This document shows positions 45,187 to 49,786 of a stretch of DNA of 64,000 bases, one piece after another. The notes beneath the pieces are model-generated. The model saw only the letters and a list, made by a program, of their open reading frames with translations, ran no database searches and was not told the origin of the DNA. Location: NCBI GenBank assembly GCA_043827025.1, contig JBDRPL010000005.1, forward strand, positions 1-64,000, read 5' to 3'. Origin of the DNA: Candidatus Micrarchaeota archaeon. GTDB lineage: Archaea; Micrarchaeota; Micrarchaeia; Anstonellales; Bilamarchaeaceae. The translations under genes were made by a program, and so were the position numbers. Within the stretch, counting starts at the first letter, position 1, and each line of letters opens with the position of its first letter.

Positions 45187-45276
45187 ATTTTTATATTCTT
45201 TCATTCTAGTTATTTGTTTCTTTAATTAGGTATTGTAGACAGGTTATTTGTGCATGTTTTGCACATGTTTTTATTT

Positions 45277-45360
45277 GCAGGGGTGGCGGAGTGGTCAAAC
45301 GTGCTAGGTTGAGGGCCTAGTGGCTTAGTGCCTACGAGAGTTCGAACCTCTTTCCCTGCA
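45277..45360 (+). tRNA. tRNA-Leu(GAG)
   Basis: GCAGGGG acceptor, CTAGG-TTGAGGG-CCTAG, long variable arm, GTTCGAAC T-loop. Confidence 0.95.
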
Positions 45361-45592
45361 TACTGATCTGGTCTGAGGACACTAACCTTTTAGGTTCTCA
45401 GATTAGATCTCAAATCATGGCAAGAACGTCGCAACGTTCTTGACTGCCATTGTCGCAAGCGACAATAGCATGCCCTGAGGAACTCAGATCGGATCTGAGG
45501 TCTGAAGCTACTTAACATTACAATGCCAAATTTAGCAAAATGTAGATCATCTCGCCGAGTGCTGTTCTGAGGAGAGAAGCTTATAAAGACTG

Positions 45593-45922
45593 CTACTGGC
45601 TTAACCAAACTAATTTGTTATTAGAATCAATAGGAAATCTACTTTTTAACGTATGTAAAAGGGTTCTACTATCCCCTTTCTTTAAACAAAACCATGCCCC
45701 CATCAAACGATGGTATTCTCTAAGGGTTATTTTCGAATCTCCAATTTTTGTTTTAAGTCGTTCAAATGCCATTTTTTCAAAATCAAATTTTCTATTCGTT
45801 TCTTCTACTATCTCGGGTTCAATTTCTTTCTTTACCTGCGGTTTATTTTGCTTTTTTTCTTCAACCCTAGCGAATAAATCGTCTAGTATGGCATTCCATC
45901 TTTCAAGTTTTTCTCGATCCAT
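45593..45922 (-). CDS. Small hypothetical protein, possible winged-helix C-terminus
   Basis: MDREKLERW... 109 aa, starts 11 nt after the MBL gene stop; the longer ORF-track start overlaps the MBL gene. Confidence 0.5.
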   Translation of the reverse strand: MDREKLERWNAILDDLFARVEEKKQNKPQVKKEIEPEIVEETNRKFDFEKMAFERLKTKIGDSKITLREYHRLMGAWFCLKKGDSRTLLHTLKSRFPIDSNNKLVWLSQ

Positions 45923-45932
45923 ATTAAAAACC

Positions 45933-47276
45933 CTATAAATCAATCTTATTGCCTTTTTTCGGGTGTAATGCTCGATCCTTAAATAGTTCAGCATGATGAG
46001 TATGTATAGGTAAAACTTTTTTTGGATCAATCTCTTCAATGAATCCAAATATCTCACTCATAGCCGCATGCCCGGAAGCGTGCAATTGGTGATATGTAAG
46101 ACCGAAGGTATCAGTCCAATTATGTAAAACGTCATCAGAAACCTGAGAAATCGGATCCTCTTCAAAAGGTTCACTCATCGAATGAATACAAATTCCTCCT
46201 TTTGGTTTTATATCAATTAATTCAGTGAGTTGGAAAAAATCAAGCTCAAGAATACAATTGTTACAATTCTCAGAAACATATTCTGAATCAACACACTTTG
46301 GTAACATTGGTTTCTCCCATGGCTTGTAAACTTTCATTTCTCTACCATAAATTTTGATATGCTTATCTGAATATGGATCTGGCAAACCTATTGGATCATC
46401 TTTCAAAGATAAAAGCAAATGTGCCATCTTCATTGAGATTATCAAATCTTTTCCAGTTTCTTTTGCTATCGAGTAAAACGTTCTAAATCTATCAATGTCT
46501 TTTGGATATCTCATGGCTAATATCAAACCTTTTGATTCTTGAACTACTTTTTTGCTCTCACTTTGCACAATTGATTCTGTATGATTTTTTCGTGTTTCCT
46601 TTGGAGCAACTCTTGTTCCTTCTATAATCAAAACTTCAGGATCAAATTCCGATGCTTTTTTCACAAAATCCTCGGTCATATCGCATCGTGGGCCATGCTT
46701 TCTCAAATCCCCAGAATAAGCGATATTTCCTTCTGAAGTTTCGATAACAAATCCATAAGCTCCAGGTACAGAGTGGTCAACATGAACTGGGCAGACTTTG
46801 AAATCCCCTATTGAGAAGTCTTTTCCTGTTCTGAAAGTGTTAGTTTTAGTTTCTTCTTTGAAGAATTTCTGATTTGTTGTTTCTTGAGTAGAACCTAAAA
46901 TAAGCTCAGTTGCTTCACCCAAATAAAGAGGAATGTCTGGATGTAAGTATTGCAAATGGGCAACATGATCAAAATGAGCATGTGAAAGTATCACGCCGTC
47001 AAATTCTGGTTCTGCATAAGCCAGATCTGTTTTTTCCAAGACGTCTTTGGAGTATAAACCTTTGAGTTTTGGAATAAGATTAAATGCAAAATAATCCCTA
47101 AGTCCAAATCTTGCTCTTGGTGCAAGATATGCTTCAGGTACAAAATAATCATCTAAGAGATTAAATGACTGTCCAAAATCCAAAAATATTCTTGACTTTT
47201 TATCTTCTATAAGAAATTTATTTCCGCCAATTTCGTTTATTCCACCATATGCAGTTATTGATGTCATATTGCTCAC
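45933..47276 (-). CDS. MBL-fold beta-CASP metallo-hydrolase (RNase J-like)
   Basis: GG..EIGGN, LDFG, SHAHFDH, VDHS, YSGDLR.HG, IIEGT, HASGH, PIHT. Confidence 0.85.
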   Translation of the reverse strand: MSNMTSITAYGGINEIGGNKFLIEDKKSRIFLDFGQSFNLLDDYFVPEAYLAPRARFGLRDYFAFNLIPKLKGLYSKDVLEKTDLAYAEPEFDGVILSHAHFDHVAHLQYLHPDIPLYLGEATELILGSTQETTNQKFFKEETKTNTFRTGKDFSIGDFKVCPVHVDHSVPGAYGFVIETSEGNIAYSGDLRKHGPRCDMTEDFVKKASEFDPEVLIIEGTRVAPKETRKNHTESIVQSESKKVVQESKGLILAMRYPKDIDRFRTFYSIAKETGKDLIISMKMAHLLLSLKDDPIGLPDPYSDKHIKIYGREMKVYKPWEKPMLPKCVDSEYVSENCNNCILELDFFQLTELIDIKPKGGICIHSMSEPFEEDPISQVSDDVLHNWTDTFGLTYHQLHASGHAAMSEIFGFIEEIDPKKVLPIHTHHAELFKDRALHPKKGNKIDL

Positions 47277-48523
47277 TCCGTTAAATCTCTTATAAGTTCA
47301 TAAACAGCATATAATTCACTAATTGTTTTTCTTACAAATGAAATTGTTTCGTCCTCACTCATCTTTATTAAAGTTGCACGGGGCATCTCTTTACATATCT
47401 TAATTTCTAGTCCGTGATGTTTTCTTTTTAGAAGTTTTTTGAGTTTTTTAAAAATAATCAAATAATCATTTTGTTCAGAAAAATCTAAATTCAAAGATAA
47501 GACTTCACTATATGAAGTTGGCGCATTTTTCCTGTTTTTGTCGCGTTCTATAAATTGAATAATAATTTTGTAACTTTTAGAATGTGTAGAACCTCCCTTT
47601 AATTGGTTAAACACTCGTGAAAGAGAAACGCCAGATTTGCGTAATTGGTCTGATTCAAGACAATCTTTAACTAACCTACGGATTTTAGCCTTGTTATTTA
47701 AAACTACAAATACCTCTAAACAACTTGGTGTCAGACCAGTAGAAATATGAGCAAAATCTTGTTGTCGTTCATATTTTGTTAGAACTGCACCAACCCACTG
47801 GTTTTCCATATTTAGCTTCGATTGATAAGCCAATGGTTTGACCCACATACTGCCTTTTTTAGGCTTAGCTTTTTTCAAGATTCCCTCAACTTTACTTTTT
47901 ACATTCCTAGCCATTTCTTGATCTTCGAAAAATCCAAAATCTTTACTATTAAAATTTAATGTTGCCATATTATTCACCTCGAGATATTCAAGAAATTCAG
48001 TTAATAGAAAATTCACCAAAAGCTTCTTTTCAAATTTTTGTTGCATCTCTTTCAAGAAGGAATATACTTCTGGCCATTGATGCTTATTTTCTTTCTTAAC
48101 ATTAAGCAACTTACAATGTCTTCTAAGTTGATCTTTGTTTACGTTAGAACTTGTTTTGACCTCTACGAGTATTGCGAAGTTATCGTTATTACTATAAATC
48201 CAAGCGTCTGGAATACTATCATTAAGTTTAATTTTTCCATTTTCTCTCTTTTCTTTAGAATATATTAGCAAAACTGCTCTTTGTTTTTTAGATCTAAGAT
48301 CTTTAGCTAAATCTCGATTTTGGAGTTCATATTTAATATTACTTCCAGAAGGAACCACGCTGGTAAATTTTTTTATAAACTTACGGGTAATCTCAGGTTC
48401 GTCACATTTTTCTAATAAATTTATAAGTGATTTCGTAGTATTATTCTCTATCTGATACTCGTCTTTCTGTGGGTCAGAACTTTGAGTGCCATAATAATAA
48501 AATAAATTCTTATGTGGATCCAC
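47273..48523 (-). CDS. PD-(D/E)XK superfamily nuclease with uncharacterised C-terminal domain
   Basis: EN..T..L, SIPDAWI, ILVEVK, QL.RH, W..V, FLEYL pattern. Confidence 0.7.
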   Translation of the reverse strand: MDPHKNLFYYYGTQSSDPQKDEYQIENNTTKSLINLLEKCDEPEITRKFIKKFTSVVPSGSNIKYELQNRDLAKDLRSKKQRAVLLIYSKEKRENGKIKLNDSIPDAWIYSNNDNFAILVEVKTSSNVNKDQLRRHCKLLNVKKENKHQWPEVYSFLKEMQQKFEKKLLVNFLLTEFLEYLEVNNMATLNFNSKDFGFFEDQEMARNVKSKVEGILKKAKPKKGSMWVKPLAYQSKLNMENQWVGAVLTKYERQQDFAHISTGLTPSCLEVFVVLNNKAKIRRLVKDCLESDQLRKSGVSLSRVFNQLKGGSTHSKSYKIIIQFIERDKNRKNAPTSYSEVLSLNLDFSEQNDYLIIFKKLKKLLKRKHHGLEIKICKEMPRATLIKMSEDETISFVRKTISELYAVYELIRDLTE

Positions 48524-49191
48524 TAAATTACCCCCGTTAATTCCTCAAATTTTTCTATTTCATAATCCGCTTGAATATTATCCTTGAACATCTGTCCGTA
48601 TTTTGCTAGGCAAGTTTGCATACCTACCGCTTTAGCACCTTTAATGTCCCGTGTGGGATTATCACCAACAAATAAAACTGCATCGGGTAATACTCCTAGT
48701 TTTTTTAGTGCCAATGTGAAAGCAGAAGGATGCGGTTTGAATTTTTGAGTGTCTGAATGTGTAATTATAAAATCAAATTCATTTTCCAATCCAGTAATAA
48801 TAAGTCGTTGCCAAACTTTGTTTCGTGGGCCATCAGAAACTATGCCCAATTTTACGCCTTTTTCTCTTATTTTTCTAAGAGTTGGCTTTACCATTGGATA
48901 AGGTCGCAGAACTTCTGATTTTCTTTGTAAATAAGCCAAAATTCCAGCCTGTTGAATCTTTTCAGCTAGATTTACTTCTAATTTATACTGCTTAACTACT
49001 TCATAGAAAGTCTTTTGATATTCTATTCCTTTCTCATCATAAACCGAGAATATTTTTCCATAAACTTTTATTTCCTCATCTGGAAGGCCCTGCTTAATCA
49101 TGGCCTTAGCGGCAGCTTTAGCAGTTTCTTTCTTGAAAGTAAGGAAATCCAGAAGCGTATTGTCCAAATCGAAAAGAACTGCCTTAAACAT
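48523..49191 (-). CDS. HAD-superfamily hydrolase (subfamily IA)
   Basis: FDLDNTL, IVSDG, KPHP, FVGDNPTRDI.GA. Confidence 0.92.
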   Translation of the reverse strand: MFKAVLFDLDNTLLDFLTFKKETAKAAAKAMIKQGLPDEEIKVYGKIFSVYDEKGIEYQKTFYEVVKQYKLEVNLAEKIQQAGILAYLQRKSEVLRPYPMVKPTLRKIREKGVKLGIVSDGPRNKVWQRLIITGLENEFDFIITHSDTQKFKPHPSAFTLALKKLGVLPDAVLFVGDNPTRDIKGAKAVGMQTCLAKYGQMFKDNIQADYEIEKFEELTGVI

Positions 49192-49194
49192 GAA

Positions 49195-49293
49195 TCAACC
49201 TTTAGAAAGATCATCTAAGTACTTAGTAAGAAATTTACTTACTGCCTCCTTTTTCTCTTCAAGGGAATACTCCTTTTTCTTTGCATTTTTCAT
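49195..49293 (-). CDS. Possible 32-aa leader ORF or gene remnant
   Basis: MKNAKKKEYSLEEKKEAVSKFLTKYLDDLSKG with AAGGTG RBS; stop 3 nt before the HAD start. Confidence 0.35.
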   Translation of the reverse strand: MKNAKKKEYSLEEKKEAVSKFLTKYLDDLSKG

Positions 49294-49382
49294 TAACACA
49301 CCTTGTCTATGTTTTTTATAGACATATCTGTTTAAAAGGTTAATGAAATTAAATATTACCATGACAGAAACGGTGCTTATCT

Positions 49383-49589
49383 CTACCTTTTACTCAGCCA
49401 TTTGGCCCAGCAGCGCATACAATATACTACCTTGGCCACTCGCCCGTGGCTCGAACCCTTAGCTAACCGTATCTTGGAAAACGAAACTATGTCCTTTTTG
49501 TTTTCAGGACATATTTCCGGCTCTTTATCCATCTTGTCCAGCGCAGTGGCCAGACGCCTCGGATAGTTATACAAATCTATATCCGCCAT
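49383..49589 (-). pseudogene. Truncated tyrosine recombinase/integrase (N-terminal fragment only)
   Basis: DLYNYPRRL..ALDKM..ICPENKKDIVSF....LAKGSSHGRVAKVVY resembles the N-terminal domain of archaeal integrases; no catalytic domain follows; adjacent to att-like repeat. Confidence 0.65.
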
Positions 49590-49786
49590 ACCAATCACTC
49601 CGGCAGATGATCTATTTTTTATTTCCTGCAAAATTTGATACCACAATGATAATTGGTTTGTGATCTCAGATCAGGTCTGTGAATTCTTCCCCTTGCATAG
49701 TCATTTTCTCTCAGTGCACTATTTTGTCGAAACACTGAGACTGAATCTCAACTTTCTTCCCCTGCACCACTTCTTTTTCATAGTCA

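Follow-up and report, generated by a model that had tools for sequence, protein, structure and literature searches.

The window analysed here is a stretch of 64,000 nucleotides (nt) of contig JBDRPL010000005.1 (assembly GCA_043827025.1) of a Candidatus Micrarchaeota archaeon, to which the positions below refer. Beside a tRNA-Leu gene it carries an island of reverse-strand genes, with a G+C content of 31-36% against 40.6% genome-wide, encoding a HAD phosphatase, a PD-(D/E)xK nuclease, a beta-CASP hydrolase with a metallo-beta-lactamase (MBL) fold and two small proteins, together with a promoter and the stump of a regulator gene. These genes are the cargo of a deleted integrated element and represent a recurrent cassette, made up of a CARF-winged helix-turn-helix (wHTH) regulator, its predicted operator, the HAD gene, a variable slot and the beta-CASP gene, that is a member of no named system. 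The initial annotation had likewise recognised no named system, and PADLOC (PADLOC-DB 2.0, library of 2023) returned none, only its generic 'Hydrolase' model for the HAD protein (E 1.5e-8); PHROGs and PADLOC gave nothing specific for the four proteins, and the cassette is not described in any title or abstract opening found in the literature searches. The nearest labelled homolog comes from Candidatus Micrarchaeota, in agreement with the DPANN-like host that had been supposed.

The HAD gene (48523..49191) encodes a 222-residue subfamily IA phosphatase of the PH1655-like type, a predicted nucleotidase, which scores 175.2 bits against TIGR02253 (cut-off 169.75), matches 2HOQ at E 5e-32 and has motifs I-IV (D8xD10, S119, K150-K152 and GD(176-177)..D). 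Its stop codon has base 48523 in common with the GTG start of the nuclease gene (47273..48523), which in turn overlaps the beta-CASP ORF (open reading frame; 45933-47276) by the GTGA at 47273-47276; coordinates and overlaps thus agree with those annotated initially. For the beta-CASP protein itself ATG 47267 is the likelier start (gene 45933..47267), because homologs begin at the equivalent position. The protein is of the EF2904/2AZ4 type (2AZ4 E 2.9e-27), and its MBL motifs 1-4 and motifs A, B and C are invariant in 37 of 37 (D30, H96xH98xD100H101, H165, D187, E216, H400, H422). With the HAD motifs and an invariant nuclease triad (66/66) this bears out the claim of intact catalytic motifs. 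RNase J and aRNase J cut-offs are not reached (TIGR00649, 90.3 against 400 bits; NF047419, 76 against 820 bits). Motif C is His, which in the excerpt available of PMC3095777 is an RNA signature, DNA-processing beta-CASP enzymes having Val there, and this suggests an RNA substrate. Viral contigs contain 11 beta-CASP loci, all of them distant (25-32%), and a search of a phage collection gave 17 records, none above 31%. Among related loci, beta-CASP ORFs of 917 (L195), 706 (L181) and 561 (L063) residues suggest fusions or long extensions.

As the initial annotation had proposed, the island is integrated at a tRNA gene, namely tRNA-Leu(GAG) (45276..45361, forward strand; ARAGORN), and its integrase is dead. 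The left attachment site attL (45344..45362, forward) has the 6-nt core TGCATA at 45357-45362 and attR (49681..49699, forward) the same core at 49694-49699. Contigs of sequencing runs X1 and X3 contain the empty site, in which 45356 is joined to 49694 over the six shared letters TGCATA. The attR sequence aligns with the att site before the integrase of a relative, G015, whose element of about 20 kb occupies the same tRNA-Leu(GAG) after rpoD, with an intact 399-residue PF00589 integrase at its far end and a cargo of TraG/VirB4-type, PrgI, VirB2 pilin, Cdc6-like and restriction-modification genes. In the window only a 5' fragment of the tyrosine integrase is left (49383..49592, reverse), 79% identical to that of G015, and conjugation genes, present in the G015 element, were not found between attL and attR. 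CTCAGA-type repeats at 45363..45500 are likely integrase arm sites; of the five genome-wide matches of the pattern, four fall at the ends of the island (45377, 45397, 45483, 49665). The motif is also found flanking the two att sites of G015, and the two elements can be aligned over their att and arm-like sequences. With att duplication, integrase and empty-site form all present, the island is a remnant of a tRNA-integrated, ICE-type (integrative and conjugative) element, and it is polymorphic, being carried by only part of the sampled population. In run X1, which may be the source sample, depth is about 6-7 over the island against about 14.5 over the flanks, although summed contig depth cannot be read as a proportion of cells. 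A genome from the same genus, G001 (74% complete), has different genes between rpoD and sufS, and neither HAD nor beta-CASP was found in it. Because of this difference and of the att, empty-site and G015 evidence, the island genes are cargo and not native to the locus, which speaks against the possibility, raised initially, that the HAD and MBL genes are vertically inherited core genes here. A family of conjugative elements of Micrarchaeota-type genomes moves such cassettes.

Several further observations concern the element. ARAGORN finds only seven tRNA genes in the 1.33-Mb assembly, so that its tRNA regions are mostly unassembled or undetected. The G015 element (L231-L232; G015:C1 about 284700-304700), an intact-looking conjugative element, also holds two methyltransferases and a Vsr gene, and at L060, L061 and L083 the HAD-beta-CASP genes are flanked by pilin-region genes related to those of G015. 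A 25-nt inverted repeat, 80% complementary, lies near both island ends (45537-45561 and 49596-49620), its right copy being the integrase upstream region, found twice in G015. A second tRNA-end-like copy at 49755-49769 was not counted as an att site, since it is one of 19 one-mismatch 12-mers genome-wide. Two integrases of the same family occur elsewhere in the genome (C10:75295-76542 and C12:9209-9553), with 50-56% identity to the fragment over its length, and might still act in trans to excise the island. The sample may also contain the element in other forms: a 774-nt contig of run X1 (contig 6) matches 48757-49349 for 593 nt and, shortly ahead of the regulator stump, passes into different sequence, and variant integrase letters occur in another contig.

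A regulatory layer had been overlooked in the initial annotation, which also took the enzymes for the whole cargo; in fact the cargo further contains a 32-residue ORF, an operator-like palindrome and a regulator stump. The stump (49361..49396, forward) is all that is left of a CARF3-wHTH (Csa3-like) regulator gene, namely its 12 initial codons (MTETVLISTFYS), and aligns at the DNA level with the intact starts and promoters of L119, L083, L059, L031 and others. The intact homologs have the CARF plus wHTH architecture (PDLC01849 at E 8e-60 for one member; Csa3_N and HTH matches). After 12 residues the stump gives way to the integrase fragment, read on its reverse strand, whose 3' end is fused to it at about 49394-49397, and a contig of run X1 covers this junction (49337-49723) with zero differences. 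One deletion thus took away the regulator together with the element's core, including most of the integrase. An intact regulator was not found in this assembly, which is 91.6% complete.

The surviving promoter holds, 47 nt before the stump, the palindrome TGTCTAT-N7-ATAGACA (49304..49324), the predicted operator of the CARF-wHTH regulator. Beside it the conserved block TTTAAAA (49331..49337; alignment A3) is the predicted TATA box of the divergent promoter, a role suggested by archaeal promoter spacing. Of 18 loci that have the regulator, 12 show the palindrome close to a CARF, HAD or beta-CASP start, as against 1 of 149 loci that do not have it, that one being the window. Since it had been defined on these first loci, 19 further CARF loci were tested (excluding L254, where the CARF ORF was not called): nine have the palindrome, 22-67 nt from the called start, and ten do not, several of the latter having CARF directly behind another gene. 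In two of the seven palindrome pairs both partners vary (9 cells), a covariation reached in 4 of 500 shuffles. The operator consensus is matched perfectly at one further site of the same genome (contig C18, position 18742; 2 sites observed against 0.08 expected under a Markov model), whose spacer is not T-rich. It lies between two divergent genes, of which we take one, from labels assigned by eye, to be AlbA/RecG-like and the other to resemble a DpnI-type endonuclease; this site, too, may be an orphan of the regulon.

The regulator was found in 48 of 401 genomes and, amongst the loci of the phylum mapped around the enzyme pair, in 15 of 79; these 79 remain of 87 fetched loci after exclusion of a duplicate (L051) and of L052-L058, which lie outside the phylum. 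It also adjoins restriction-modification, UvrD-PD-(D/E)xK and AAA genes in the absence of the HAD-beta-CASP pair. At L248, L251, L252, L255 and L257-L260 it stands beside a UvrD helicase of about 900 residues with a C-terminal PD-(D/E)xK domain. The Cas10 palm domain (PF22335) was detected in one of 31 regulator genomes, 78-94% complete, the positive control giving 6 of 14 reference genomes. Because Cas10 is almost absent, the CARF ligand is probably not cyclic oligoadenylate.

The initial annotation had called for a neighbourhood survey, in which the HAD and beta-CASP genes proved to be linked whereas the nuclease did not co-occur between them. Amongst 400 genomes of the phylum, related ones not being independent, beta-CASP was found in 88, HAD in 84 and both in 64, of which 44 have the two genes within 10 kb; a single-protein scan of genome contigs had given 8 loci. 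The HAD gene precedes the beta-CASP gene in 36 of 45 pairs, and the two nearly touch in 17. In 80 metagenome loci beta-CASP is again flanked by HAD genes, including two other HAD types. The HAD tree groups the window protein with L119, G191 and G196; in the beta-CASP tree (FastTree) the window enzyme stands with G112, G139 and G308, and those of G191 and G196 fall in another clade, so that partners have been swapped while the pairing persists. L147 and L149 have a divergent CARF-wHTH pair before HAD and beta-CASP, amid housekeeping genes. The closest relative of the island, L119, comprises a type I methyltransferase, an intact CARF gene, the operator, a HAD gene (87% identical), two slot genes, beta-CASP and a CAAX protease, and then the same tRNA-Leu end.

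The conserved unit is therefore the HAD phosphatase plus the EF2904-type beta-CASP hydrolase, separated by a gene that varies from locus to locus, in many cases a nuclease. Nineteen other pairs enclose genes within a gap of up to 2 kb (L053, L087, L044 and longer gaps excluded); the slot contains a profile-supported nuclease or HD hydrolase in eight, presumably a nuclease- or glycosylase-like gene in six, judged from motifs and family labels assigned by eye, and something else in five. The nuclease family of the window occupies none of these 19 slots. A single query found it in 0 of 60 relatives and a profile in 6 of 400 genomes, in none of them between HAD and beta-CASP, although in three of the six it lies near CARF, HAD or beta-CASP. 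The window nuclease has 416 residues and joins a PD-(D/E)xK domain (D106, E121 and K123, a D..ExK motif on a restriction-endonuclease core) to a C-terminal DUF1054/YktB-fold domain. All its Pfam matches are sub-threshold, the profile revealed no solved relative by sequence, Foldseek gave none at E up to 0.001, and the direct McrB-N match of the C-terminal domain is at noise level, the structure model resting on an alignment of eight sequences. At E up to 0.001 the family numbers 1,594 cluster representatives, with almost no Pfam cover; none was found in viral contigs. A cognate methyltransferase is absent from the island, and one methyltransferase-like ORF was seen elsewhere in the assembly.

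Two small genes complete the operon. The first gene after the promoter is the 32-residue ORF (49195..49293), which has a 29-residue homolog in the CARF-controlled operon of L031 (54% over 26 residues, E 4.6e-4). The small ORF annotated after beta-CASP is indeed present, its start being refined to ATG 45922, 10 nt after the beta-CASP stop (45593..45922); a 154-residue reading was rejected for its overlap with the beta-CASP gene in favour of 109 residues. The protein, possibly winged-helix-like (Atlas matches under 0.9, weak wHTH-like structures), has one database record of equal length and two homologs only, matches nothing in any fetched locus and is probably outside the conserved module.

A role in defence can be inferred from context, and the proximity to defence genes anticipated initially was found in the defence-rich neighbourhoods of relatives' loci. 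Of the 79 loci, 21 have methyltransferases at a distance of up to about 13 kb, among them 9 of the 15 with CARF, compared with 1.5% of random windows, a weak control drawn from the own genome. In five of six plasmid records opened, homologs stand beside restriction, Avs2, toxin-antitoxin or cas genes. HAD phosphatases have precedents in defence, as excerpts of the respective reports describe: as a signal eraser in MisB of Metis, which dephosphorylates the m6dAMP signal (bioRxiv 2025.11.05.686725), as a nucleotide-depleting effector in Chp (PMC12715507), and in DS-9 (PMC13092281). We tentatively favour, at just short of an even chance, the reading that the window contains the cargo of a deleted conjugative element in which HAD, a replaceable gene and beta-CASP form an inducible nucleic-acid-degrading defence cassette under CARF-wHTH repression. 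Gene order, linkage, variable slot, element ends, regulator stump and conserved palindrome are observed, and from these we infer the remaining steps. A CARF-wHTH dimer would bind the palindrome, placed as it is between TATA box and first gene, and keep the HAD operon blocked until released by a small nucleotide ligand not made by Cas10. The slot nuclease would then cut invading DNA, perhaps reading modified bases through its DUF1054-fold domain, beta-CASP would degrade RNA or short oligonucleotides to mononucleotides, and HAD would strip phosphate from these, denying nucleotides to the invader and clearing the inducing signal. Such a cassette would work like a BrxR-controlled defence island, as outlined in the excerpt of PMC9122601. 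In the present genome, because the repressor gene is lost and no other copy was found in the assembly, the operon is likely derepressed and predicted to be constitutively on.

Two observations weigh against this reading: most loci are without both CARF and a methyltransferase, and many HAD-MBL pairs lie amid housekeeping genes. The most serious alternative, in our view unlikely but worth keeping, is that the pair is a housekeeping RNA-decay and nucleotide-salvage unit of small-genome archaea which rides on mobile elements, with unrelated stand-alone defence genes dropping into a permissive site between its members. The 17 directly adjacent pairs, the motif C His, the 64 of 79 loci without CARF, the homolog in an ABC-transporter operon in the sixth plasmid record and the non-nuclease slot genes would all suit it, whereas the patchy distribution (88/400) and tree incongruence are unlike those of core genes, the regulator and palindrome recur, and the other plasmid homologs keep company with defence genes. 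A rather less probable alternative is that the pair is an off-switch, the beta-CASP enzyme as phosphodiesterase and HAD as phosphatase destroying the CARF ligand and leaving the slot gene as sole effector. A constant pair with a variable effector is the anatomy to be expected of it, MisB offers a precedent, and the lack of Cas10 in 30 of 31 genomes fits; however, the regulator is also encountered ahead of restriction-modification and UvrD-PD-(D/E)xK genes where the pair is absent, the pair is mostly found without the regulator, and the ligand is only putative. It appears improbable that the regulator runs a DNA-damage and repair regulon, with nuclease, beta-CASP and phosphatase processing ends, instead of antiviral defence: CARF genes do adjoin UvrD-PD-(D/E)xK helicase-nucleases, some slot genes are EEP, NucS-like or glycosylase-like, and Csa3a activates DNA repair genes (excerpt of PMC8844856), but motif C is not the Val of DNA-processing enzymes and the genes travel on conjugative elements with restriction-modification cargo. 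Slightest of all is the chance that, as first annotated, HAD, nuclease, beta-CASP and the small protein together make up a new antiviral system of four fixed genes, for despite the translational coupling, the intact motifs and the nuclease near CARF, HAD or beta-CASP in three of six other genomes, the arrangement was seen in no other locus, a single query found the nuclease in none of 60 relatives, the small protein matches none of the fetched loci, and the varying slot content largely refutes it.

Extending the favoured reading of an inducible defence cassette, one may imagine, as a doubtful but specific proposal, a CRISPR-independent CARF circuit of DPANN archaea, in which a Csa3-like sensor would respond to a nucleotide from nucleic-acid breakdown during infection and lift repression at a TGTMTAK-N7-MTAKACA operator, switching on a cassette whose slot would accept any nuclease, and the constant beta-CASP and HAD would finish the degradation and erase the signal; the window would then be a natural regulator knock-out. 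The cassette bears on what CARF proteins sense in genomes that have no type III CRISPR and on how archaeal defence islands are regulated. It offers a regulator, a predicted covarying operator and two constant enzymes as candidates to act on the ligand, and its variable slot is a ready list of candidate new nucleases.

Comparison with known systems places the cassette between several families. By description it resembles Metis MisB, PUA-Cal-HAD, DS-9 (metallophosphatase plus HAD) and the Chp CARF-HAD effectors in using a HAD nucleotide phosphatase in defence, sometimes with a metal-dependent phosphoesterase; in contrast, the window locus is without a PUA, calcineurin-like or membrane effector, and its CARF is a separate transcription factor. 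Like type IV restriction enzymes (McrBC, Mrr, MspJI), the window nuclease joins PD-(D/E)xK to a domain putatively in the McrB-N fold neighbourhood and comes without a cognate methyltransferase in the island, but the locus has no GTPase, and modification dependence is only putative. The beta-CASP protein shares all MBL and beta-CASP motifs, including the His at motif C, with EF2904 (PDB 2AZ4) and RNase J / aRNase J, and differs from the latter in being about 445 residues long, far below the RNase J cut-offs, patchy and mobile; it may belong to one of several non-monophyletic archaeal clusters set aside in PMC3553952. The regulator has the CARF3-wHTH architecture (PADLOC CARF3, CasR, Csa3; Pfam Csa3_N) of Csa3a/Csa3b of Sulfolobales and of MM_0565 (excerpts of PMC8844856 and PMC7465815). 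The type III CRISPR (Cas10) that marks the CRISPR-linked, cA4-binding Csa3 is, however, missing from 30 of the 31 regulator genomes checked, its ligand-pocket motifs read ISTFYS for T-x-G-F and GGWK for G-x-R, and it stands before nuclease and restriction genes, which it is predicted to control, instead of cas genes. In logic it comes close to the WYL-domain repressors BrxR and CapW, in which, according to excerpts of PMC9122601 and PMC11662680, one ligand-sensing wHTH dimer sits on an inverted repeat before diverse defence genes; binding and repression are predicted for the present regulator, and what sets it apart is a CARF domain as sensor, an archaeal host and a HAD plus beta-CASP pair as its recurring partner.

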